Source of the DNA: Pyrobaculum calidifontis JCM 11548
Lineage (GTDB): Archaea; Thermoproteota; Thermoprotei; Thermoproteales; Thermoproteaceae
Reading direction: 5' to 3'
Assembly (NCBI RefSeq): GCF_000015805.1
Contig: NC_009073.1
Span: 1,860,001-1,892,000, forward strand
DNA length: 32,000 bases
Part shown: positions 13,103-24,746 of the stretch, piece by piece
How the letters are laid out: each line of letters starts with the position of its first letter
Position numbering within the stretch: the first letter of the stretch is position 1
Notes under the pieces: generated by a model
Database searches by the model: none
Told to the model about the DNA's origin: nothing
What the model saw: only the letters and a program-made list of their open reading frames with translations
Translations under genes and position numbers: made by a program

Positions 13103-13585
13103 ATGGACCCTGGCATCCGCAGGGGGCTTTGGGGCAGCGTCGTGGCGGCCGTTTTGATAGAGGCCGTGTTGATCCTCTCCCAGGCCTACGGCATTTTCCA
13201 CGCCGCGCCTCTGGCCCTCATGTCGGCGCTTGTGGCCGTGGCGGTGTACGTCTACTTCAACTTCACCAAGGCGCTGAGGAGCGCCGCCTTTACGGCTCTC
13301 GGCCCCCCGGTGATAGGCACAGCCGCAGTGGGAGTGGCGCTTATGTGGACCGGCGCCGGCGTGGGGGCGGCCCTAGTGGCCTTGGCGTACCTCGGGGAGC
13401 CTGTGATGGGCTACTTCGTGTACAAGAGGCTGAGGGAAATAAACGCCGCGTGGGCAACGCTCTTCCTCGCCTCAGCAGCCGCCTACGCCTACACCTTGCC
13501 CACGGTGCTCCTCGGCTACTGGCAGATACCCGCGGCCGCCGACGCGATAAAGCTCGCCGCCCTCATCTACTTCCTCAGGCGCTAG
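13103..13585 (+). CDS. hypothetical integral membrane protein (4-5 TM)
   Basis: 160 aa, almost entirely hydrophobic helices, with good TATA spacing. I recognise no family. Confidence 0.6.
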
Positions 13586-14946
13586 GGCCTCGCCGCCTGT
13601 AGTTGTCTAACCTTTTCTATGTGCTTTGCGAGAGCCTCGGCGCTTGGCTCCACGTCTGGCAGAGCTCCCCGCAGGTATTCGTCGTATGCGGCTAGGTCTA
13701 GGAGGCCGTGGCCCGACATGTTGAAGAGTATTGTGATTGGCCTCCCCTCCCTCTTCGCGGCTAGGGCAAGCTCCACGGCGGCCTTCACCGCGTGGGCAGA
13801 CTCAGGCGCGGGAACCACGCCCTCGGTTCTGGCGAAGAGCACCGCCGCCTCGAAGACCTCCCTCTGGCCGTACGCCACGGCGCCTACCTCCCCCTCTGCC
13901 ACCAGGAGGGAGAGCGTTGGGGCACACCCGTGGTATCTAAGGCCCCCGGCGTGTATGGGAGGCGGCTTGTAGTCGTGGCCTATGGTGAACATCTTGATCA
14001 ACGGGGTCAAGCCCGCCGTGTCGCCGAAGTCGTAGAGGTACTCCCCCTTGGTCAACGTGGGCACGGCCTTGGGCTCCACGGCGAGGAACTTCACATCCTT
14101 CTCCGCCTTGCCCACCTTCTTCTCGTAGTAGAAAGGCCAGAAGAGGCCGGAGAAGGAGCTCCCACCGCCGCAGGCCCCCACCACGTAGTCCGGGTAGTCG
14201 TCGAACTGCCTAATCTGCTCCAGGGCCTCGAGGCCTATCACCGTCTGGTGTATCAGGACGTGGTTTAAGACGGAGCCTAGGACGTACTTTGCGCCGTTTT
14301 TGACCGCATCCTCCACGGCCTCGGATATGGCTATGCCCAGAGACCCTGGGTGGTTGGGGTCCTCTGAGAGGAACCTACGGCCGGCCTCGGTCCTGTCGCT
14401 GGGGCTCGGCACCACCTCGGCCCCCCAGAGCTCCATCAACACCCGCCTATACGGCTTCTGCAAATACGAGGCTCTGACCATGTAGACTGTGGCCTTTACG
14501 CCGAAGAGAGACGCGGCGAAGGCGACGGAGGAGCCCCACTGCCCGGCCCCAGTCTCCGTAGTCACTCTCCCCACGCCCTCCCTTGAGACGTAGTAGAGCT
14601 GGGCCACCGCCGTGTTGGGCTTGTGGGAGCCCGGCGGCGAGACGCCCTCGAACTTGTAGTAAATGCGCGCGGGGGTCTTCAAGGCCTCTTCAAGCCTCCT
14701 GGCCCTCACCAGAGGGGTGGGCCTCCATATCAGGTACACGTCTCTGACCTCCCGCGGTATCGATATCCACCTCTCCTGCGAAAACTCCTGCCTAACCAAC
14801 TCCCTGGCGAAGAGCATCTCGAAGTCCTTGGGCGCAACCGGCTCCCCATTCGGCTTTAGGTACGGAGGAAGCGGCTTGGGGAGGTCGGGCACTATGTTGT
14901 ACCACCGAGTGGGGACCATCCACTCCTCCGTCGACGACCTACGCAT
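13582..14946 (-). CDS. trpB2: tryptophan synthase beta chain-like protein, TrpB2 type
   Basis: [15 protein letters not shown] is the N-terminal extension typical of TrpB2. PLP-lysine context [11 protein letters not shown] and glycine loop [11 protein letters not shown] are present. The track ORF starts at 15036, but TATA spacing favours ATG 14946 ([17 protein letters not shown]). Confidence 0.85.
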
Positions 14947-14963
14947 GGCCGCTAGATGCATAA

Positions 14964-14973
14964 GGTATAAATA
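14964..14973. promoter_or_regulatory. shared TATA (GGTATAAATA) for divergent trpB2 and the 14993 operon
   Basis: Centred about 22 nt from ATG 14946 (minus strand) and about 25 nt from ATG 14993 (plus strand). Confidence 0.55.
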
Positions 14974-14992
14974 CGTTGGCTCAGTGGACTCT

Positions 14993-15514
14993 ATGAGCTT
15001 TAGGAAGACGCTCCTCGAGAGAATAGCCTCGTACATCCCCGGCTACGCTGGGTACAAAAAGAAGGAGGTCAGGCGGGAAACCGACGCCCTGGTGAGGAGG
15101 CACGTCGCCTCTATTCTGGCCCAAGCCGCCCAGTCCCTCGTCCTCTCGCCCGCAGATGCGCGGCTAGTGGCCGCAAACCCCGAGGCGAGGTACCTCTGGG
15201 ACTCCGTAAAGGCGGCGCTGGACAGAGTGACCCAGAGGATAGACAAGGCCCCCCACGGCTACTCCGGCTTCTTCGACTTAGTCAAGGTAGACGAGGCGGC
15301 CCTCGAGGAAGTGTACCGGCACGACCTCGCCTTGGTGGAATACGCCAAGAAGATCGCCGACGCCGCCGCCGCTGTCAAGTCGCTGAGGCCTGGGAGCGAG
15401 GAGTGGGCCAAGGCGCTGAGAGAGCTGTTGTCCCTCGTAGAGGCCCTCGACGCCGAGGTGGACAAGAGGGCCGCAATCCTAAAGGGCATAAGGGAGCCGC
15501 CCCAGCTTAAGTAG
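14993..15514 (+). CDS. hypothetical all-helical soluble protein (173 aa), upstream partner of the SPFH gene
   Basis: It is the in-frame internal ATG of the 14663-15514 track ORF. The upstream part of that ORF is antisense to trpB2. The sequence [37 protein letters not shown]... is rich in A/L/E/R/K with no TM segment. Its stop lies 5 nt before the next ATG. Confidence 0.6.
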
Positions 15515-15519
15515 AGGCC

Positions 15520-16542
15520 ATGCCGCAGGTCATCCAGTGGGTCAACCCCAGGGAGGGGGACATCATCTGGCGGTACCCCGTGGATAGAATTGAGTGGGGG
15601 GCCCAGCTCATAGTCGAGGAGTGGCAGGCGGCGGTCTTCATGCGCGACGGCAAGGTGTACGACGTCTTTCGCGCGGGGCGCCACACGTTGACCACTCTCA
15701 ACCTGCCCCTCCTAACCCAGGCGTTGAGCAGAGTGGCTGGGTTCGACAAATCGCCTTTCACAGCCACAGTGATATTCGTCTCCCTAAAGCAACACCAGCT
15801 CCCGTTCGGAGGCCGGGGGCAGACCGCCGAGCTGGCCCCCATACAGTTCTACGGCACGGCGTGGTTTAGAGTGGCAGACCCAGCCCTCTTCGTCACCCAA
15901 GTGGTAGGCGGGCAGAACGTCTACACCACCGAGGACCTGCAGAAGTTCTTGAGGGGCTACTTCAACGAGCTCCTCATGGCCGAGCTCTCCAAGCAGTCCA
16001 TCTTCACAATATACGCCAACCTGGAACAAGCCAGCTTTGTGGCAAAGGCGGCCATAGACCCCCACTTCCGCCGCATAGGCCTAGAGCTCATCGACCTGAA
16101 ATTTGAAGGACTCGACGTCACAGACCCCGTGTGGAGAGACCGGCTGTTCTACATAAGAGCCACCGGCGTAAACCCAGCCGAGTACCTGCGCATGGAGACT
16201 GTCCAAAAAGCCGCCGCAGAGCTCGGCAAAAGCCCAGGCGCCGCCGCGGGCACAGGCATAGTCCTCATACCGCCCCTCCTATGGCCACAACAGACGGCCC
16301 AACAACCCGCAACCGCACAACCGGCGCCCCAGGCCACCCCACAGCAACAACCGCAAGTAGCCGTATCACAGGGCCAACAACAACAGGGCATTGTCTGCCC
16401 CCAGTGTGGATATGTAAACCCCCCTGGGGCTAAGTTCTGTATAAACTGCGGCTATATGCTGGGGAAGAAGTGCCCCCAGTGCGGCTACGTAAATCCGCCA
16501 GATGCCAAGTTCTGCGCTAACTGCGGCACGAGACTGACTTAG
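15520..16542 (+). CDS. SPFH/band-7 superfamily protein of the YdjI / COG4260 type with a C-terminal double zinc ribbon
   Basis: The N-terminal ..IQWVNPREGDIIWRYP...GAQLIVEEWQAAVFMRDGKVYDVFRAGRHTLTTLNLPLL....SPFTATVIFV.. matches my memory of YdjI-like ('virion core protein'-type) SPFH proteins. The C-terminus carries two CPQCGYVNPP(G/D)AKFC(I/A)NCG ribbons. Confidence 0.8.
   Translation: MPQVIQWVNPREGDIIWRYPVDRIEWGAQLIVEEWQAAVFMRDGKVYDVFRAGRHTLTTLNLPLLTQALSRVAGFDKSPFTATVIFVSLKQHQLPFGGRGQTAELAPIQFYGTAWFRVADPALFVTQVVGGQNVYTTEDLQKFLRGYFNELLMAELSKQSIFTIYANLEQASFVAKAAIDPHFRRIGLELIDLKFEGLDVTDPVWRDRLFYIRATGVNPAEYLRMETVQKAAAELGKSPGAAAGTGIVLIPPLLWPQQTAQQPATAQPAPQATPQQQPQVAVSQGQQQQGIVCPQCGYVNPPGAKFCINCGYMLGKKCPQCGYVNPPDAKFCANCGTRLT
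16396..16527 (+). repeat. tandem duplication (75-nt period) encoding two zinc-ribbon modules
   Basis: 16396-16452 (TGCCCCCAGTGTGGATATGTAAACCCCCCTGGGGCTAAGTTCTGTATAAACTGCGGC) versus 16471-16527 (TGCCCCCAGTGCGGCTACGTAAATCCGCCAGATGCCAAGTTCTGCGCTAACTGCGGC). Confidence 0.85.
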
Positions 16543-16726
16543 CTAGTTACGATAAGAGGTGGTACGACGGTGCTACGTGCAAAACCAGTCAGTCCCACCC
16601 CTATGGCGGTTCTCCCCTCACAGTGTCGTCCAACCACTGCGTCTATTGGCGCAATGCATACCTCTATAGCGACCAGCGGCATGGGTCTAGGCCCTGTGCT
16701 CTATGCCGATTAGAGGTGCATTCGCC

Positions 16727-18880
16727 ATGCGGAGTACTCTAATAGTGATACTACTGGCGTGGCTGGCCTTAGCCAAAGGCATAGGCGTTGTAATCTACGA
16801 AGTAGAAATAAGCGGTGAGCTTGCAGAAGACATCTATGGGCGAGGCGTCGAAGTAGTGGGCGTCGGACCGCTACCCCTCTTCGTGGCGCCTGCCGGCGAA
16901 GACTATGCGGTTTTTGCGTTCACTGGCAACGTCACCCGCGTCAAATTCTTCAACATGTCTAGAGCCTACGTCGTAGTTCCCCGCGGCCCTCCGCCCGAGA
17001 CGCCGGGCGACTTCTACCTAGAAACTCCCCAAGGAAGGTACCCCCTCCGCTTCCGAAGCGGGGGGCCAGTGCTGGCCATCGTCGACTCGCTGGAGAGCCT
17101 TGAAAAAGTGCTCGCAGAGATGGGCTATGTGCCGCAAAGGGGCGGCAGGGCGAGGCTAGTAGGGGGAAGCCAGCAAGGCCGGCAACCCGAGCCCCTGCCA
17201 GAGCCTCTGGCCGCTTCGGTGGGTAGCACTGTGTACCCACTAGGGGGCGTCTACTTTAGAAATGTCAACGCAAAAGTGGGCGTAGTGGAGGTACAGCCGC
17301 ACGGAGACATCCAAGTTTGTTCGAACGTGAGAAACGTGGCGTATGTGGGGTTAGACGTAAATCAGCTCCTCTTAGGTTACGTCGCAGTGAACGGCACAGT
17401 GCAAGGCAACATAGTTGTACAAATCTACAAGGTCAACTCTGATGGAACATGTAGCAAGATAGGCGAGGAGAAGTACCCCCTCTATGCTGTTAGGTCGATG
17501 TACTACACTGTGGCCGGCGTAAACCCTACCTCGTCGCAAAACACGCAGATAGGCGTGAAAGTAATCTTGAACATTACGTCTGTAAGCGGCTCGCCTGTGG
17601 TGAAGGTGCAGGGAATGGCTGAGTACATTAGAACGGTGCATCACGGCTTTGAGGTGTCCGACTACTCTGTAGAGGTCGCGTGGGGCGACTTCGCCGGTAG
17701 CCGAAGTCCCATATACGTAGGGGCCAGGGTCTCAAGCATTTTGCTAGGCCCCTACATGATGCCTGACGGCGTGTTGCAAGACGGGACAAGATCTCTAAGC
17801 GTTGTAATTGAGGCCGACCCCGTAAACGGAGCTTGCCAGACTCTGTACTGGAGGCTTTACATAAACGGCTACAGCTACGAATACGGCTCGTCCACAGGAG
17901 TCCAGCTCTCGGGAACGTGTAGATACAGCGTGCAAATCTCCGGCGGATTTCCACTGCTTGCGGTTAGACACGCCAAGACTCTGACAGAGGATCTCATGTA
18001 TCAACTGAGGATCTCGTACAACGACGGAAGCGCGCCCTTTGTTAGATACTACTGGCTCAATCCCCACACCCCACTGAGAGGGTCTAGGTGGGCCGAGGTG
18101 TGGAAATCAACGCCGAATAGTCAAGGCAAAATACCTGAAATATGGCAAGAGCCACACCTCCTCACCCAGTTGCAGTTGCTGGGAATGTACGGCGGCTGGG
18201 GCGGCTCCGACGCGACTAGCAAGCTACGGGTACACGGCCTTGTGAGTATTTTTGCAGACAGTCTTTCGCGGGGGCCGGCCATTGTCATGTATGTAACGGG
18301 AAGGGTGCTCCAGCCCTCCGGCGCCACATCGCCCGTGGGCTACTGGGAGGTGCGCCTCAGGTTCCCAATCCCAGTCTCAACTGGGGCCCCTATCTACGCA
18401 GCCTACGTGGGAGATTCGAGGTTTGAAGAGCTTAGCCCGCCTCAGTGGGTGTGGATAGCCAAGATGCTTAAAAAGGCGGTAGACTTCCTAGTGGGAGCCC
18501 TGCAGTTAGACAGGTTCAAGACACTTATACACTCGGTGTTCTCCTACGCCGTGGGCCAGCTCCTAGAGTCGGCAGGCCCCCGCGCCGATGCCGCAAATGT
18601 AGATCCCTACACCTTGAAGCTGTACTACAACGCCGGGTGGGCCAACGACAAGCCGTGGGATACCGTGCTCTACTGGGCCCTCTTTAACTCCGACAAATTT
18701 ACCACATTTACAGTTACATACGTCAAGGTATATCCCATCGAAGCCACGCCAAACATAAACTTAAACCTTAGGCCTTCAAATGCTGAGCGATATTATCCTG
18801 AGGTGGATCACAGTTTTGTAAAACTGTGGGCCTTCAAGAGACTCACCGGGGCCGAGGCGATCTACATATGGCTGAGCTAG
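16727..18880 (+). CDS. large hypothetical secreted/extracellular protein (about 717 aa from ATG 16727; track ORF starts at 16703)
   Basis: Signal-like MRSTLIVILLAWLALAKG, and several N-x-S/T sequons (NVT, NMS, NGT, NIT). I recognise no family. Markedly A/T-richer than the flanks (line 17401-17460 hand count: 24 G+C of 60). Confidence 0.65.
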   Translation: MRSTLIVILLAWLALAKGIGVVIYEVEISGELAEDIYGRGVEVVGVGPLPLFVAPAGEDYAVFAFTGNVTRVKFFNMSRAYVVVPRGPPPETPGDFYLETPQGRYPLRFRSGGPVLAIVDSLESLEKVLAEMGYVPQRGGRARLVGGSQQGRQPEPLPEPLAASVGSTVYPLGGVYFRNVNAKVGVVEVQPHGDIQVCSNVRNVAYVGLDVNQLLLGYVAVNGTVQGNIVVQIYKVNSDGTCSKIGEEKYPLYAVRSMYYTVAGVNPTSSQNTQIGVKVILNITSVSGSPVVKVQGMAEYIRTVHHGFEVSDYSVEVAWGDFAGSRSPIYVGARVSSILLGPYMMPDGVLQDGTRSLSVVIEADPVNGACQTLYWRLYINGYSYEYGSSTGVQLSGTCRYSVQISGGFPLLAVRHAKTLTEDLMYQLRISYNDGSAPFVRYYWLNPHTPLRGSRWAEVWKSTPNSQGKIPEIWQEPHLLTQLQLLGMYGGWGGSDATSKLRVHGLVSIFADSLSRGPAIVMYVTGRVLQPSGATSPVGYWEVRLRFPIPVSTGAPIYAAYVGDSRFEELSPPQWVWIAKMLKKAVDFLVGALQLDRFKTLIHSVFSYAVGQLLESAGPRADAANVDPYTLKLYYNAGWANDKPWDTVLYWALFNSDKFTTFTVTYVKVYPIEATPNINLNLRPSNAERYYPEVDHSFVKLWAFKRLTGAEAIYIWLS

Positions 18881-19401
18881 TCTACAAACTCCTCCTTTTT
18901 TCAGCCATCTGTCTCGCCTCTTTACTCGCCTTCGTAGTCCCTTGGGGGACGCTGGTGCCCTCGCTTTTCGGCCTACTTCTCTTCCTCTGGTCTGCCCTAT
19001 TTGCCTCCTTCTTAGGTGCAAAGGGGCGCCACTACGTCTACCTACTACTTCTCTATACGCCTTTCTTCGCCGCGCCGCTTTACACGGCGGCCATGGCAGT
19101 GTCGCCTCTCTCCTTTCTAGCCGCCGTGATAGCCTTTTTCTACCTGGCGTATAAACGTTTCGGAATACTCCTCGGCGTGGCCTATGTGATTCTAGTGGCC
19201 ATGCTCGGCGGAGTGTATCTCTACCTCATCGACTTAGCAACAGGTGGGCTAGTCGAGAGAGCCACAAAGGAGGGCTTAATGCCAGACGCCATGTGGACTG
19301 TGCCCGCCTTCTTCATACCCGCCGCCGTGGCGACGGTCTTGGCGCACATCTCAGCCGCATTTATCTACAGAGCCGCGGGAATTAAGCCCAGAGAGGAGTG
19401 A
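18868..19401 (+). CDS. hypothetical polytopic membrane protein (177 aa)
   Basis: The internal ATG of the track ORF gives MAELVYKLLLFSAICLASLLAFVV... with 5-6 hydrophobic helices. It overlaps the end of the 725-aa gene by 13 nt, which suggests co-transcription. Confidence 0.6.
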   Translation: MAELVYKLLLFSAICLASLLAFVVPWGTLVPSLFGLLLFLWSALFASFLGAKGRHYVYLLLLYTPFFAAPLYTAAMAVSPLSFLAAVIAFFYLAYKRFGILLGVAYVILVAMLGGVYLYLIDLATGGLVERATKEGLMPDAMWTVPAFFIPAAVATVLAHISAAFIYRAAGIKPREE

Positions 19402-19527: not shown

Positions 19528-19827
19528 ATGGGTGCTGGGGAGGTCGCCGCCGCAGTGGCAACGCTGGCGGTGGGAATTTACTTAATTTTGGCATCTCTAG
19601 GCACAGTGCCCCTGGCCGTGAATTTCCTGCTCGGGCTAGCCGCGGCCACCTTCGGCGTGTCCTACGCCGTAGTAGGTAGGACGAGGGAAGCGGCCTTTTG
19701 GGGAGGGCTCTTGCTAATTGTTGGCGTAGCCCTCATCTACGGCGGCGGTGCGTCGCCCCTCCTCGTAGTCGGCGTAGTGCTGGTCTTCGCCTCGCTGGTT
19801 GCCCTGCTAAGTCTCCTGCGCAAGTAA
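19528..19827 (+). CDS. hypothetical small membrane protein (99 aa, 3-4 TM, Gly/Ala/Leu/Val-rich)
   Basis: Hydrophobic ORF with a TATA-like AACTTATTTTAGAG (19498-19511) about 24 nt upstream of the ATG. Confidence 0.55.
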   Translation: MGAGEVAAAVATLAVGIYLILASLGTVPLAVNFLLGLAAATFGVSYAVVGRTREAAFWGGLLLIVGVALIYGGGASPLLVVGVVLVFASLVALLSLLRK

Positions 19828-19921: not shown

Positions 19922-20767
19922 CTAGAGTCTCTTTTCTGCCTTGTACTTGCCCACTCTCGCCGCGGCTAAGTTGAGCACGAGCCTGGTCGCCGCTCCCAGG
20001 CTGGCGACGCCTCCGCCCACTGCGCCGAGGGCCGGCGGCAGGCCCACATAAGCCGCCGCCATTGCGCCAAGCGCCGCGGCGCCGGCCACAACGGCCGCGG
20101 CCATCCCCAGCGCCTCCGCGCGGCCTCTCGCCGATATTGGGTACTCCATGTAGAGCACTGTGCCGTCTGTGGCGTCGACCGCCGCACTGTACCTCCTTCC
20201 GCGGTAGTCGTAGGCCAAGCGCCAGATGGGGTAATAGACGAGGCCCTCGAGGCGCCACTCAACGCCTATCTTCACCTTGAAGACCTGGGCGTATGCCCTG
20301 GCCTCTTCCACCACCTCTTGAAGCGAGGTGAAGGCGGCCTCTGGGTCTAGGTCCGGCGAGTGGAAGACTCCGACTCTCTCTAGGGTGGGCTTGAATGGGG
20401 TGCGCCACCTCGCGGGGAATCTAAAGCCCGTCGGGAGGGGGACTGGGGGGCTAGAGGTGGCTAGGGCTGTGGCGTATGTGGCAAGTTGGTCGAGAGGTGG
20501 GAAAGACACGTAGTAGAGGTAGAGGGGGAGGAAGTGTAGCTCTGCCTCCACTGGGGATGCGGCGGGGAGGTCCTCGGGGGCCGCCGTGGGTCTAAAGTTT
20601 AGCACAGCCTTAAACGCCGCGGTCTTGTCCACCGCGGGCTTGAAGATGTAGACGTTTTCATAGGTCTTTCCCTCGCTCAGCGCTGTGCCGCAGTATGGAC
20701 ACACGTAGAATCTGCGCCCGGGCGGCGCCTCGTACTTAGCGCCGCAGAAGGGGCACTGGATAATCAC
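19922..20767 (-). CDS. zinc-ribbon protein with C-terminal Gly/Ala-rich membrane anchor (paralog B, 281 aa)
   Basis: The GTG start overlaps the upstream stop (GTGA). The N-terminus (M/V)IIQCPFCGAKYEAPPGRRFYVCPYCG is a CxxC-x17-CxxC ribbon. It shares the motifs LHFLPLYLYYV and YYPIWRLAYDYRGRRYSAAVDATDGTVLYMEYP with the upstream gene. The C-terminal ~60 aa are G/A-rich hydrophobic. The upstream part of the 372-aa track ORF overlaps the previous gene and is R/G-rich. Confidence 0.7.
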   Translation of the reverse strand: MIIQCPFCGAKYEAPPGRRFYVCPYCGTALSEGKTYENVYIFKPAVDKTAAFKAVLNFRPTAAPEDLPAASPVEAELHFLPLYLYYVSFPPLDQLATYATALATSSPPVPLPTGFRFPARWRTPFKPTLERVGVFHSPDLDPEAAFTSLQEVVEEARAYAQVFKVKIGVEWRLEGLVYYPIWRLAYDYRGRRYSAAVDATDGTVLYMEYPISARGRAEALGMAAAVVAGAAALGAMAAAYVGLPPALGAVGGGVASLGAATRLVLNLAAARVGKYKAEKRL

Positions 20768-21783
20768 GTCTCTACCCTCCTGCTCTTCAAAAGGCCCCCA
20801 GCCGCGAGGTACGCAGCGGCCGCGCCGCCGACCAGCGCCGCGGCTCCAAACAGTGGGTCTGCCGCAACTGCTACCGCCGCGCCCAGTCCCCCGAGTAGGC
20901 CGGCCGCCGCGGCGGCGCCCACGACGCTTATCGCCCTGTTTTCCACGAAGGAGGGCTCCTCGGCCACTACCACGGCGCCGTCCCACCCGGCGGAGTAGTA
21001 GCTGTAGTGAGACCCCTTGTAGAAGTACGGCACAATCCACATGGGCAAGTAGGTGAGCGGCGACACGGCGAGCTTCTCCACTGTGTAGTCCACGGCCTTG
21101 TCCACCACGCTCGTGGCGGCGGCGATGACGCCCAGCATAGCCCTGGCTCTCTCAGAGGCGTCGCTGTCCACGGCGGCCAAGAGCTTGGGGACGAGGGCGC
21201 GCACCGCCTTGGCCTTGGCCTGCTCCTCTGTAAACTCGCCCGCAAGAAAGGCGGAGGCAGTGGCGGCCTCCTTCGCCACCTCGGGCAGAGGCTTGGGCTC
21301 CGGCGCAGTCTTGAAGAAGTGGTCCACTAGCTTGTCCACGGAGAGGCCCCATGCAGACCTCCTCGCAAGCACGGCCACCACGTCGCTAAGCCGCACGGCG
21401 CCCTCCACGTCGACGGTCCTAGTCACCACCCGCGTCTGAGGCCTCCCTCCTACGTACACCGTCTTGGTGTAGGTCACGACTACGCGCGCTTTGTACACTG
21501 CGGACATTGCCACGTCCACTAGGTAGAAGGGCAGGTAGAGGAGCGTGGGGGCGGCGAAGTTTATGTCCCGCATCCGCCTGCCGAGGTTGAAGTCCCTCTT
21601 CGTCCTCTCCACGGCGCGTCTAATGACCTCGGAGGCCGAGAGCGTGGGCACGGCCAGCGCCCTCCCGGCGGAGCCGTCAAGAAAGTTGGGCTGGCCGCAG
21701 TACCTACACACGACTACCACCGAGTCAGGCGTCACGTCAAGCGGCGCGCCGCAGTACCGGCACCGCAACTCCACATACCCCAC
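20764..21783 (-). CDS. zinc-ribbon protein with C-terminal Gly/Ala-rich membrane anchor (paralog A, 339 aa)
   Basis: N-terminal CRYCGAPLDVTPDSVVVVCRYCG ribbon, LLYLPFYLVDV and TYLPMWIVPYFYKGSHYSYYSAGWDGAVVVAEEP motifs, and G/A-rich C-terminal TM segments. A TATA (GATATAAAAAATT, 21801-21813) lies about 23 nt upstream of the GTG start. Confidence 0.7.
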   Translation of the reverse strand: MGYVELRCRYCGAPLDVTPDSVVVVCRYCGQPNFLDGSAGRALAVPTLSASEVIRRAVERTKRDFNLGRRMRDINFAAPTLLYLPFYLVDVAMSAVYKARVVVTYTKTVYVGGRPQTRVVTRTVDVEGAVRLSDVVAVLARRSAWGLSVDKLVDHFFKTAPEPKPLPEVAKEAATASAFLAGEFTEEQAKAKAVRALVPKLLAAVDSDASERARAMLGVIAAATSVVDKAVDYTVEKLAVSPLTYLPMWIVPYFYKGSHYSYYSAGWDGAVVVAEEPSFVENRAISVVGAAAAAGLLGGLGAAVAVAADPLFGAAALVGGAAAAYLAAGGLLKSRRVET

Positions 21784-23376: not shown

Positions 23377-24015
23377 CTATGGCGCATCTCCGCGTTGGGC
23401 GTCTTGGAGGAGCGCCTTGGCTACCTTATAGCTTACTTTGACTCCCTGGAGCTTTACGGGGGCGTTGTCACATAGGATTTCCACCTCTGGCTCCGCCGAC
23501 ACGACGTAGACGGCGAATCTGCGCCTTTTCCCACAGTCGAGGATTGTGTCAGACTGCTCCAATGGCACAACGCGGTGCTCCAGCGCCCCCCTCACCTTTA
23601 CGTCTACGCACTCCACCTCCGCCGAGGCGAAGTAGACGGGGCGGTTTTCCACTGCCTCAACCGCCCTCTTGAAGCGGCGGTAGAGGAGGACGGAGGCCAC
23701 GTGTGTGCAAATGCCCCTCCGCCTCCTCCAGCCGAATGTGGAGTAGTAGCAAGTACACTCCCACCGCCCCTCCCTCGCGCTCCACCACACTTGGTAGAGC
23801 GGCTTCCAGTCTCCCAGCTCCCTCACCCCCTCCACGACGTAGAGGCCCTCCCTCACCTCGCGCACGTGGGGCAGTCTGAAGAGGGCCCTCTTGACCCACG
23901 ACCGGCTCTTTCCGGGGAAATCCCGCCTAAGCCTGTCGAGGGCGATGCGGAGGGGGTCGCCGTTGGGGCGTCTATTTTTGCCTGTGGTATAGCCTATGCG
24001 GCGGTTTCGAGGCAT
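23377..24015 (-). CDS. SWIM zinc-finger domain protein
   Basis: 212 aa. CTCYYSTFGWRRRRGICTH fits the SWIM CxC-x(n)-CxH signature. Its ATG overlaps the nuclease stop by 1 nt (TAATG). Confidence 0.7.
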   Translation of the reverse strand: MPRNRRIGYTTGKNRRPNGDPLRIALDRLRRDFPGKSRSWVKRALFRLPHVREVREGLYVVEGVRELGDWKPLYQVWWSAREGRWECTCYYSTFGWRRRRGICTHVASVLLYRRFKRAVEAVENRPVYFASAEVECVDVKVRGALEHRVVPLEQSDTILDCGKRRRFAVYVVSAEPEVEILCDNAPVKLQGVKVSYKVAKALLQDAQRGDAP

Positions 24016-24746
24016 TATCGCTTGGCTAATTTAGCTACGACAGCCGCCATTAGCAGTAGGGCCACGACTACGGCTAACAGTGCCAAGGCGTAGCCGCCGA
24101 AGGCTATGGCAGTTTCAGTTACCGTGGTAGTGGTGGTTACCGTGTACGTGACAGGCTCCTTTTGCGTTACCGTATGCGTAACCACCACTGTATCTGTCAC
24201 AGTTTTGGTGACCGTCACCGTGGCTGTGACTGTGTTTGTGGTCGCCACCGTAGTGGTGGAAGTCTGAGTTACTGTGACGGTGACGGGGGTTACGCTGGTC
24301 GTCGCCTTAGGCGCAGCGGCCTTGGGCAAGTAGAGGGGCCACGGCGGGTGGAACTCGTTGGGGTAGTCCACGTATGCGGCGTAGCCGCGCTCGACGAGCC
24401 ACTGGTTTACGTTCAGCCAATGCGTCTCGTTGTAGTCGAGGTACGCCACAGCGACGAAGCGTCCATATCTGTCGGTCTTGTACAAGTCGTCTATGTCTAG
24501 ACAGACCCGCCTCCCCAGGAGGAGGGCCTCAAGCGCCGCCTTGGCCCTCTGCCCCTCAGCAGTAGAGAGCTCGGGAGCGTCGACGTCGGCCAGCCTAACC
24601 CGCTCGGGCAAGCCAGACACATAGAACGTGTCCCCATCGACGACCCTAGTGACTACGCCGCAGTGCTCCTCAACTGCGCCAAACGTTGGGACTGCAAACA
24701 ACAGCGCAAGAGCGACAACAGCGGCAAACAAGCCCAACCTCAACAC
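24015..24746 (-). CDS. staphylococcal-nuclease-like thermonuclease with signal peptide, Thr/Val-rich stalk and C-terminal TM anchor
   Basis: Signal-like MLRLGLFAAVVALALLFAVPTFG. SNase core VVDGDTFYV...RVRLADVDAPE....DRYGRFVAVAYL. About 64 aa of T/V low complexity. C-terminal hydrophobic helix followed by KLAKR. Confidence 0.8.
   Translation of the reverse strand: MLRLGLFAAVVALALLFAVPTFGAVEEHCGVVTRVVDGDTFYVSGLPERVRLADVDAPELSTAEGQRAKAALEALLLGRRVCLDIDDLYKTDRYGRFVAVAYLDYNETHWLNVNQWLVERGYAAYVDYPNEFHPPWPLYLPKAAAPKATTSVTPVTVTVTQTSTTTVATTNTVTATVTVTKTVTDTVVVTHTVTQKEPVTYTVTTTTTVTETAIAFGGYALALLAVVVALLLMAAVVAKLAKR
24111..24302 (-). repeat. low-complexity Thr/Val-coding tract (ACC/GTN repeats)
   Basis: Encodes TTSVTPVTVTVTQTSTTTVATTNTVTATVTVTKTVTDTVVVTHTVTQKEPVTYTVTTTTTVTE. 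On the plus strand it appears as reiterated GTGAC/GGTNAC units. Confidence 0.8.

Follow-up and report, generated by a model that had tools for sequence, protein, structure and literature searches.

In the 32,000-nt stretch of Pyrobaculum calidifontis JCM 11548 analyzed here (contig NC_009073.1, positions 1,860,001 to 1,892,000; hereafter, the window), a small gene of 173 codons (14993..15514, + strand; ATG at 14993, TAG at 15512-15514) directly precedes a gene for a 340-aa SPFH (flotillin-like) protein (15520..16542, + strand; ATG at 15520, stop at 16540-16542), and our results show that the small gene, hereafter the partner, is inherited together with the SPFH gene and lies close to it, in most cases with a coupling-type junction between them, across TACK (Thaumarchaeota, Aigarchaeota, Crenarchaeota and Korarchaeota) archaea and several bacterial lineages. 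SPFH proteins organize membranes in all domains of life. Based on sequence and gene context, we consider it reasonably probable that the partner is an SPFH-binding accessory subunit of a module resembling YdjG and YdjI of Bacillus subtilis (a YdjG/I-like module), and not a homolog of PspA; any particular sub-mechanism (membrane adaptor, inhibitor, or in-trans helical wall) deserves much less confidence than this general statement.

The linkage was assessed on loci gathered from the partner side, that is, on the contexts of individual homologs, a species-representative set (80 loci of 493 confirmed matches, from Pyrobaculum, Thermoproteus, Caldarchaeales, Bathyarchaeia, Methanomethylicia and Nezhaarchaeota) and a metagenome set (80 loci of at least 581 confirmed matches, seeded from a different branch of the family). 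Open reading frames (ORFs) were called in each locus and then searched with hidden Markov models (HMMs) for the partner and the SPFH domain, and 172 loci were scored, covering Thermoproteales, Bathyarchaeia, Caldarchaeales, Methanomethylicia, Nezhaarchaeota, Acidobacteriota and metagenomes. A same-strand SPFH gene was found downstream of the partner in 82 of the 89 archaea-rich loci, the other seven all ending at a contig end, and in 74 of the 83 metagenome loci, the other nine being eight with <440 nt of downstream sequence and a single locus (L091) to which we return below. That is, a gene of the Band_7_1 class of SPFH domains follows on the partner strand in 156/157 loci with enough sequence. 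Spacing is tight as well: 58 pairs of the archaea-rich set are directly adjacent, with gaps of -17 to +94 nt (median about 2), and most partner-SPFH gaps of the metagenome set are -1 to +40 nt. The individual contexts concur, from Methanomethylicia, Nitrososphaeria, Thermoproteus and Pyrinomonadaceae to a contig (L089) that is presumably bacterial, as we take its LpxB neighbor to be a bacterial marker. Bacterial origin is secure for the Pyrinomonadaceae metagenome-assembled genomes (MAGs), where TonB, peptidase S41 and gas-vesicle genes are among the neighbors.

Three types of insert occur between the two genes. One is a same-strand ~410-aa gene that overlaps the partner stop by 4 nt (L036 6495-7727 and about 18 other Bathyarchaeia/Caldarchaeales loci); its product matches no Pfam family, contains a weak central zinc ribbon and clusters by BLAST with the YdjG-like family described below. 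Pyrinomonadaceae and 7 metagenome loci carry instead a protein combining a zinc ribbon, a transmembrane segment and a Toastrack domain (DUF4097). The third type is an opposite-strand Zip transporter gene (Pfam) in P. islandicum (L007 6563-7309), and unannotated opposite-strand ORFs are found at the same place in Pyrobaculum sp. WP30 (L011) and P. oguniense (L012); the bicistron is interrupted in these genomes, yet the partner and the SPFH gene are both kept.

Within the window, 5 nt (AGGCC) separate the partner stop from the SPFH ATG, as noted in the preliminary description of this DNA, and a Shine-Dalgarno-like GAGG (15514..15517, + strand) overlaps the partner stop, leaving 2 nt between its end and the SPFH ATG. 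Among the tightly spaced junctions of all loci, 91/103 have a Shine-Dalgarno-like 4-mer 5' of the SPFH start, compared to a background of 27% when 19-nt windows are drawn at random from these loci. A TATA-like box, TATAAATA (14966..14973, + strand), lies 19 nt 5' of the partner ATG, and an alignment of 90 nt of upstream sequence places an A/T box at the same distance in 10/11 Pyrobaculum/Thermoproteus orthologs, where it reads TATAAATA, TTTAAATA or TTTATATA and the flanking upstream sequence is unconserved. A box-to-ATG spacing of 19 nt is what leaderless archaeal transcripts need, and the position of the box would thus imply a leaderless-type partner/SPFH transcript. Reading by eye, no A/T-rich box was visible upstream of the SPFH ATG in 15400-15519. 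It is very likely that the partner and the SPFH gene form a bicistron behind one TATA box, as had been proposed, because the promoter position is conserved, the 5-nt spacer carries GAGG and same-strand adjacency holds in 156/157 informative loci. A divergent ORF of the PALP family (pyridoxal-phosphate enzymes; 13582-15036, - strand), which we take to be TrpB-like, overlaps the partner start by 44 nt in its longest form. In-frame methionines at its residues 26, 31 and 40 (about 14961, 14946 and 14919) would abolish this overlap, and such a shorter start would give a divergent promoter region of 30-75 nt with the TATA box inside.

We conclude from its homologs that the 173-codon ORF is a real gene and not a chance ORF in GC-rich DNA, because 63 homologs (none with a Pfam domain) were found by word-indexed search in one database, and a family profile of 34 partner homologs, run against 1.84 billion cluster representatives, matched 2137 of them at E<=1e-3, 1307 at <=1e-10 and 284 at <=1e-30, nearly all 160-180 aa long. 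Identity to the window protein is 56-98% in Pyrobaculum/Thermoproteus, about 48% in Methanomethylicia/Nitrososphaeria and about 33% in Pyrinomonadaceae bacteria. Twelve residues are invariant in the 34-homolog alignment (P16, G17, G20, R27, D31, R35, G89, G92, L104, D111, L114 and R159), and all of them except R159 fall within two motifs: motif 1, LERIxSYIPGYxGY..E.RRE.D..R (aa 8-35; 15014..15097, + strand; invariant P16, G17, G20, R27, D31 and R35), and motif 2, A..GYSGFFD.VKV.E..L..VY..DL.L (aa 86-116; 15248..15340, + strand; invariant G89, G92, L104, D111 and L114). Both motifs hold across 148 distant representatives, in which motif 1 has the consensus iPGf.GY...E.RReaDkl.R. With two Gly/aromatic motifs, the family alignment is unlike that of a featureless coiled coil, as judged from the sequences.

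Scans of the window protein and of the family members found no Pfam family for the partner, in line with the preliminary description, which had called it all-helical and without recognized family. Bacterial members match NCBIfam NF047596 (LIMLP_15305, Leptospira) at 1e-11 to 1e-13 over profile positions 14-172 of 175, and the window partner matches it at 1e-5 (25.5 bits, compared to 44-50 bits for the bacterial relatives and an equivalog cutoff of 210). The Leptospira LIMLP_15305 family is, by these profile scores, a distant homolog, and the window partner is outside the equivalog. LIMLP_15305 is mentioned in the literature solely as a gene flanking a small RNA, with its function undescribed. 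Single-protein Pfam matches to FAA_hydro_N_2, ApoLp-III and NPV_P10 were rejected as helical-composition noise, being far below cutoffs and inconsistent between members. An internal duplication, suggested by the resemblance of PGYAGY to HGYSGFF, was likewise rejected, since hhalign of the N-terminal against the C-terminal half gave a probability of 1.8% and column-shuffled controls reached up to 4.2%.

Some family members carry additions at their ends. Domain fusions are rare and comprise a C-terminal DUF4178 (P0171 and P0196) and an N-terminal zinc ribbon (P0066); one member has a C-terminal transmembrane helix (P0195) and another a 220-residue Q/G/P/S-rich tail (P0166). Most Thermoproteales members carry a basic-hydrophobic C-terminal tail of the KKGGLFDKLFKRGK type, for example EEKKGGLFDKLFRRGKS (tails were compared in P0007, P0009-P0011, P0019 and P0028-P0029), which we take to resemble the membrane-targeting helix of MinD. 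The window partner ends in ...REPPQLK (15488-15514), without the roughly 20-residue tail of most Pyrobaculum/Thermoproteus orthologs, and Pyrinomonadaceae partners terminate in a short P[LM]FS motif.

The SPFH protein, for its part, belongs to a known family. It matches Pfam PF13421 (Band_7_1) at 98.7 bits vs. a cutoff of 24 (E 4.7e-28), over profile positions 1-199 of 211, and consists of the SPFH/Band_7_1 domain (aa 16-204; 15565..16131, + strand; Pfam), a Q/P/A-rich low-complexity linker seen in the translation (about aa 240-288; 16237..16383, + strand) and two C-terminal zinc ribbons (aa 290-339; 16387..16536, + strand; PF12773 DZR at 3.6e-13 and PF13240 Zn_Ribbon_1 twice, at 7.1e-17). No transmembrane segment was detected in it by hydropathy (maximum 19-residue Kyte-Doolittle mean of 1.05 vs. 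a threshold of 1.6), and a gene annotated ydjI on a Ralstonia megaplasmid encodes a protein with 30% identity to it (5e-24). YdjI of B. subtilis has a low-complexity region plus zinc finger(s) and no transmembrane segment [PMC8581546], and the architecture of low complexity plus a C-terminal zinc finger is described for the YdjI type also in [PMC11237479]. We assign the window SPFH protein on its domain architecture to the YdjI/SamI type, because it combines Band_7_1, no transmembrane segment and a low-complexity linker plus zinc ribbons as in YdjI; the earlier proposal of a YdjI-type product without an N-terminal transmembrane helix is thereby borne out.

The pair also has recurrent companions. 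Proteins that we call YdjG-like (an N-terminal zinc ribbon, a ~200-aa globular domain and usually a C-terminal transmembrane segment, often as two tandem paralogs) are encoded on the same strand in 60/86 archaea-rich and 23/83 metagenome loci, and a small multi-transmembrane protein of ~100 aa, likewise encoded on that strand, is common and lies beside the pair in the majority of archaeal loci. An uninterrupted same-strand run of five genes is seen in Thermoproteus (L008), coding for the partner, the SPFH protein and proteins of 98, 342 and 283 aa; the window holds this module in two blocks, that is, the pair (14993-16542) and the remaining three genes 4 kb downstream. The first of these three encodes a 99-aa multi-transmembrane protein (19528..19827, + strand), the ortholog of the Thermoproteus 98-aa protein (46% identity, 1e-16; L008 7654-7947), whose gene directly follows the SPFH gene; homology of the 99-aa protein to the small-transmembrane group (c100) of the archaeal loci is tentative. 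YdjG-like protein 1 (339 aa; 20764..21783, - strand) matches the family (c333) HMM at 3.2e-84, has its transmembrane segment at residues 284-332 and is 26% identical over 292 aa to the zinc-ribbon protein encoded directly downstream of a Paracoccus SPFH gene. YdjG-like protein 2 (281 aa from a GTG at 20767; 19922..20767, - strand) matches the same HMM at 1.3e-75, has a C-terminal transmembrane segment and shows Pfam matches to Zn_Ribbon_TF (TFIIB-type) at 8.2e-6 and, weakly, to PepSY/YpeB at 0.044; its GTG overlaps the TGA of gene 1 (GTGA), with GGAGGG upstream. The two blocks of the window are separated by genes for an unrelated, presumably secreted 725-aa protein with an N-terminal signal/transmembrane segment and no Pfam or PADLOC match (16703-18880, + strand) and for a 191-aa multi-transmembrane protein (18826-19401, + strand), and both genes are missing at the equivalent place in Thermoproteus and P. 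islandicum. A role in anti-phage defense is unsupported, as PADLOC matched neither of the paired proteins, nor the 410-aa insert, nor the 725-aa neighbor.

The composition of the module varies among lineages. At two loci (L006 and L089), no other module member lies near the partner and the SPFH gene, and on this ground we argue for the pair as the minimal functional unit. Band_7_1 loci on plasmids of Ralstonia, Paracoccus and Bacteroides (L172-L174) are without the partner (best HMM E of 0.16) and keep the zinc-ribbon family (2e-44 in Paracoccus, weak matches in Ralstonia and Bacteroides). Judging from these gene contents, the link between SPFH proteins and zinc-ribbon membrane proteins looks older and more general than that between SPFH proteins and PspA, because partner-less Band_7_1 loci also carry the zinc-ribbon family; that the module keeps a YdjG-like component without PspA is further evidence in the same direction. 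The partner-less genes are flanked by those for DUF350, TelA-like/DUF2927, YidD-like and zinc-ribbon proteins. The comparison suggests that several alternative accessory sets exist for the Band_7_1 SPFH class, and the 173-aa family seems to represent one among several alternatives for the third component, beside PspA plus YdjH in Firmicutes and DUF350/TelA-type proteins in the proteobacterial examples.

With regard to structure, the partner was modeled alone by AlphaFold2 from a 34-sequence alignment, giving an all-alpha model with a mean predicted local distance difference test score (pLDDT) of 85.1 and a predicted template-modeling score (pTM) of 0.77, the five models lying within 3 pLDDT units. 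The predicted elements are a short helix (7-13), a PGY turn and helices 18-48, 53-84 (kinked), 101-129 and 136-167, with a 16-residue loop (85-100, containing GYSGFFD) of lower pLDDT. The prediction, a confident one, is that of a compact, closed four-helix bundle with helices of ~30 residues (29-32), and a Kyte-Doolittle scan found no transmembrane segment in the partner. Foldseek searches against PDB and the viral structures of BFVD returned no significant relative at E<=1e-3; the closest geometric matches, at TM-scores of about 0.5-0.57, were the soluble domain of Chlamydia IncA (6e6a; about 0.55), the FAT domain and the Rx coiled-coil domain, with E of 0.2 or worse, identities of 10-12% and none of the family motifs, and we regard the likeness of the model to generic antiparallel four-helix bundles as a fold-level analogy only. 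Searching PDB with the partner sequence and profile retrieved designed coiled coils and nucleoporin coiled coils only. Conservation is concentrated at residues 11-35, 81-116 and around R159, and from the up-down bundle topology we infer that these stretches and the C-terminus share one predicted pole, which scores 2.84 bits vs. 1.99 bits for the other, whereas residues 45-60 and 125-140, at the opposite end of the bundle, vary and contain the indels. The conserved pole, with aromatic residues and glycines beside basic residues, could be a protein-docking or membrane-interface surface in this model.

The preliminary description had pointed out that the partner occupies the position of PspA relative to ydjI-type genes in Firmicutes, and it is possible, although in our view unlikely, that the partner is a functional analog or an unrecognizably diverged member of the PspA/ESCRT-III class, that is, a polymerizing membrane-repair effector recruited by the SPFH protein. 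Thermoproteales are reported to lack a Cdv/ESCRT-III division system. In favor of this reading, the partner gene sits beside that for a YdjI-type SPFH protein, YdjG-like proteins are encoded in the vicinity, a jackhmmer search with PspA had no match among the ORFs of ~170 loci, and DUF4178 and Toastrack, found here as fusion or insertion partners, have been catalogued together with band-7+ZnR proteins as associates of Psp systems [PMC11237479]. Further, YdjI of B. subtilis binds and localizes PspA [PMC8581546]. However, no PspA_IM30 (PF04012) or Snf7 signal was found at E<=1 in the window partner or in 34 family members, and hhalign of the family profile against Escherichia coli PspA (a query confirmed as PspA_IM30 at 9.1e-49) gave a probability of 0.25% over 19 columns. 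The structural comparison agrees: a compact bundle of ~30-residue helices is predicted instead of the long alpha1-alpha2 hairpin of PspA/Vipp1, no PspA/Vipp1/ESCRT-III entry is among the top 50 Foldseek matches in PDB, and a phage PspA in BFVD aligns to the model with a TM-score of 0.21. Nor are invariant Gly/Pro/aromatic loop motifs such as those of the partner known as a feature of ESCRT-III proteins. The N-terminus, described earlier as amphipathic-looking, did not stand out in this respect, as its hydrophobic moment of 0.28 was equaled by 54% of shuffles in a low-power test that the MinD control also failed; this segment belongs instead to the strongly conserved motif 1. Hence, we rejected detectable homology of the partner to PspA/ESCRT-III, and the positional parallel stands as synteny beside a ydjI-type gene with YdjG-like proteins and does not extend to PspA/Vipp1 homology.

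Quite unlikely, too, is a role as a dedicated assembly chaperone or inhibitor that, like a brake on a brake, would prevent the soluble SPFH protein from assembling before a membrane signal is received, without being a structural subunit. Such a role would fit the strict co-expression deduced from gene linkage and the way in which the Psp and Sam systems are regulated, which involves inhibitory partners of this kind, and the conserved loop that is poorly ordered in the solo model could fold upon binding; on the other hand, the membrane-directed C-terminal additions of some members suit a membrane-proximal subunit better than a cytosolic holdase. We find it very unlikely that the SPFH cage is split between the two genes, with the partner supplying in trans the helical wall or lid that is the C-terminal coiled coil of HflK/C, flotillin and stomatin. 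The ~35 residues between the end of Band_7_1 (aa 204) and the linker are too few for a long coiled coil, and the partner is all-helical, encoded in the same operon and translationally coupled, all as this arrangement would have it, but a closed four-helix bundle is predicted for it rather than an extended coiled coil, there are no SPFH-partner fusions among the 150 best representatives, Band_7_1 proteins without a partner exist, and Pfam scans show no similarity of the partner to SPFH C-terminal regions. Finally, an incidental adjacency or a spurious ORF, conceivable since GC-rich DNA yields many long chance ORFs (several were seen here), is effectively refuted by thousands of homologs with conserved motifs in two domains of life and by adjacency in 156/157 loci.

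We favor the hypothesis that the partner is an SPFH-binding accessory subunit, and the adaptor or regulator model that follows takes the SamI/SamGH framework of B. subtilis as its guide. There, SamI is a soluble SPFH oligomer that is recruited by SamG/SamH and restrains their signaling [bioRxiv 10.64898/2026.02.06.704340]. By analogy, the partner would bind the SPFH protein in a fixed proportion and act as an adaptor or regulator at the inner membrane face, contacting the SPFH protein through the conserved pole, that is, through the PGYxGY turn, the GYSGFFD loop and a charge cluster of R27, D31, R35, D111 and R159. The partner C-terminus would leave from the same pole and, in some lineages, be extended by the basic-hydrophobic tail or a transmembrane helix, so that the partner may link the SPFH protein to, or regulate its engagement with, the membrane-embedded zinc-ribbon and small transmembrane proteins. 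Under this hypothesis, a soluble SPFH oligomer would be recruited to a membrane-embedded sensor complex and restrain or organize it, as in SamGHI, and the partner family would fill the slot held by PspA and/or YdjH in Firmicutes, without homology to either.

It is important to note several points that weigh against this interpretation. Binding of the partner to the SPFH protein is what we infer from gene context, and the single conserved pole depends on the predicted topology. That the C-terminal tails bind the membrane is a weak reading, as their hydrophobic moments do not exceed those of shuffled controls, with the MinD positive control faring likewise, and the window partner has no such tail. 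The name YdjG-like rests on architecture, which was compared with the published description of YdjG. At the metagenome locus L091, the partner has no SPFH gene within 5 kb downstream; an opposite-strand gene comes after it, and the contig provides only 196 nt of upstream sequence. Finally, the Ralstonia, Paracoccus and Bacteroides loci without the partner mean that it is not universally required by the Band_7_1 SPFH class.

A broader form of the accessory-subunit hypothesis, which we regard as doubtful at present, is that the family represents an unrecognized class of sub-membrane effectors that, together with the soluble SPFH scaffold and zinc-ribbon sensors, would form a PspA-independent membrane-stress or membrane-organizing system. 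If true, PspA would have been replaced non-homologously by a protein with its own fold and its own docking motif (PGYxGY / GYSGFFD), in a system that would be widespread in TACK archaea, including Thermoproteales, and in some bacteria.

Regarding what is new here, the family of the SPFH protein was known before, and so was the tight operon arrangement in which a small accessory gene accompanies an SPFH gene (NfeD, PspA-YdjGHI). The partner family appears to be new, given that it has no Pfam model, no significant structural relative and a distinctive pair of motifs, and the finding that it is almost always linked to YdjI-type SPFH genes, within a module devoid of PspA, across TACK archaea and some bacteria appears to be undescribed so far; no description of the partner-SPFH pairing was found by full-text literature searches or in the closest comparative-genomics papers. 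In related genomes the partner is kept upstream of the SPFH gene, and it has no match to a well-characterized unrelated family. Only in B. subtilis, where PspA and YdjG/H are involved, is it known how a protein of the anchor-less YdjI/SamI class is coupled to membrane and effectors. The family defined here, with at least 1307 cluster representatives at E<=1e-10 and as a near-invariant operon partner in TACK archaea and several bacteria, provides a concrete and testable candidate for the adaptor or effector still missing from archaeal SPFH systems, and its two Gly/aromatic motifs are a signature fit for defining a new family.

A few additional observations were made on the loci. In a Pyrinomonadaceae MAG (L003 1-4812), a gas-vesicle cluster (GvpA, three GvpL/F, GvpG and an ArsA-like ATPase) is divergent from, and immediately upstream of, the partner/Toastrack/SPFH operon. 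A contig labeled Candidatus Acidiferrales bacterium (L055) may be mis-binned archaeal DNA; the neighbors that it shares with Bathyarchaeia loci are the small transmembrane protein and what, by our reading of the sequences, are presumably an FAD oxidoreductase and a lysyl-tRNA synthetase of class I. Clusters of antisense or overlapping-frame ORFs that emerged from the neighborhood analysis were discarded as shadow ORFs of real genes. Elsewhere in the window (24015-24746, - strand), an ORF encodes a 243-aa protein in which a signal-like N-terminus is combined with a C-terminal transmembrane helix and a long T/V-rich low-complexity stretch (TVTVTQTSTTTVATTNTVTATVTVTKTVTD...).

The pair can be compared to several known systems. 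SPFH-NfeD operons (stomatin-STOPP, QmcA-YbbJ, FloA/FloT-NfeD2) are tight two-gene pairs with a small accessory protein in bacteria and archaea; NfeD proteins are membrane proteins with a soluble OB-fold beta-barrel domain, and their SPFH partners are membrane-anchored, whereas the pair described here has no transmembrane segments, its partner is all-alpha, and NfeD Pfam matches are zero. The Leptospira protein of NF047596 is homologous to the partner family over nearly the full length. PspA, Vipp1 and ESCRT-III proteins share with the partner an all-helical, cytoplasmic nature, a size of about 170-220 aa and a gene position beside a YdjI-type SPFH gene, but the partner has no sequence, profile or fold similarity to them, and has short helices and invariant Gly/aromatic loops. 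The closest parallel in organization is the pspA-ydjGHI (samGHI) operon of B. subtilis, where a YdjI-type SPFH protein also occurs with zinc-ribbon membrane protein(s) of YdjG architecture (zinc ribbon, PepSY/YpeB-like domain and transmembrane segment) and where a helical cytoplasmic protein is also encoded upstream of the SPFH gene. The loci studied here differ from it in having no jackhmmer-detected PspA and no TPM family, and hence no TPM-domain YdjH, listed in their Pfam-annotated contexts; in their place are a non-homologous family of ~170-aa four-helix bundles (as predicted) and a small multi-transmembrane protein, in a system that is archaeal and acidobacterial rather than firmicute.

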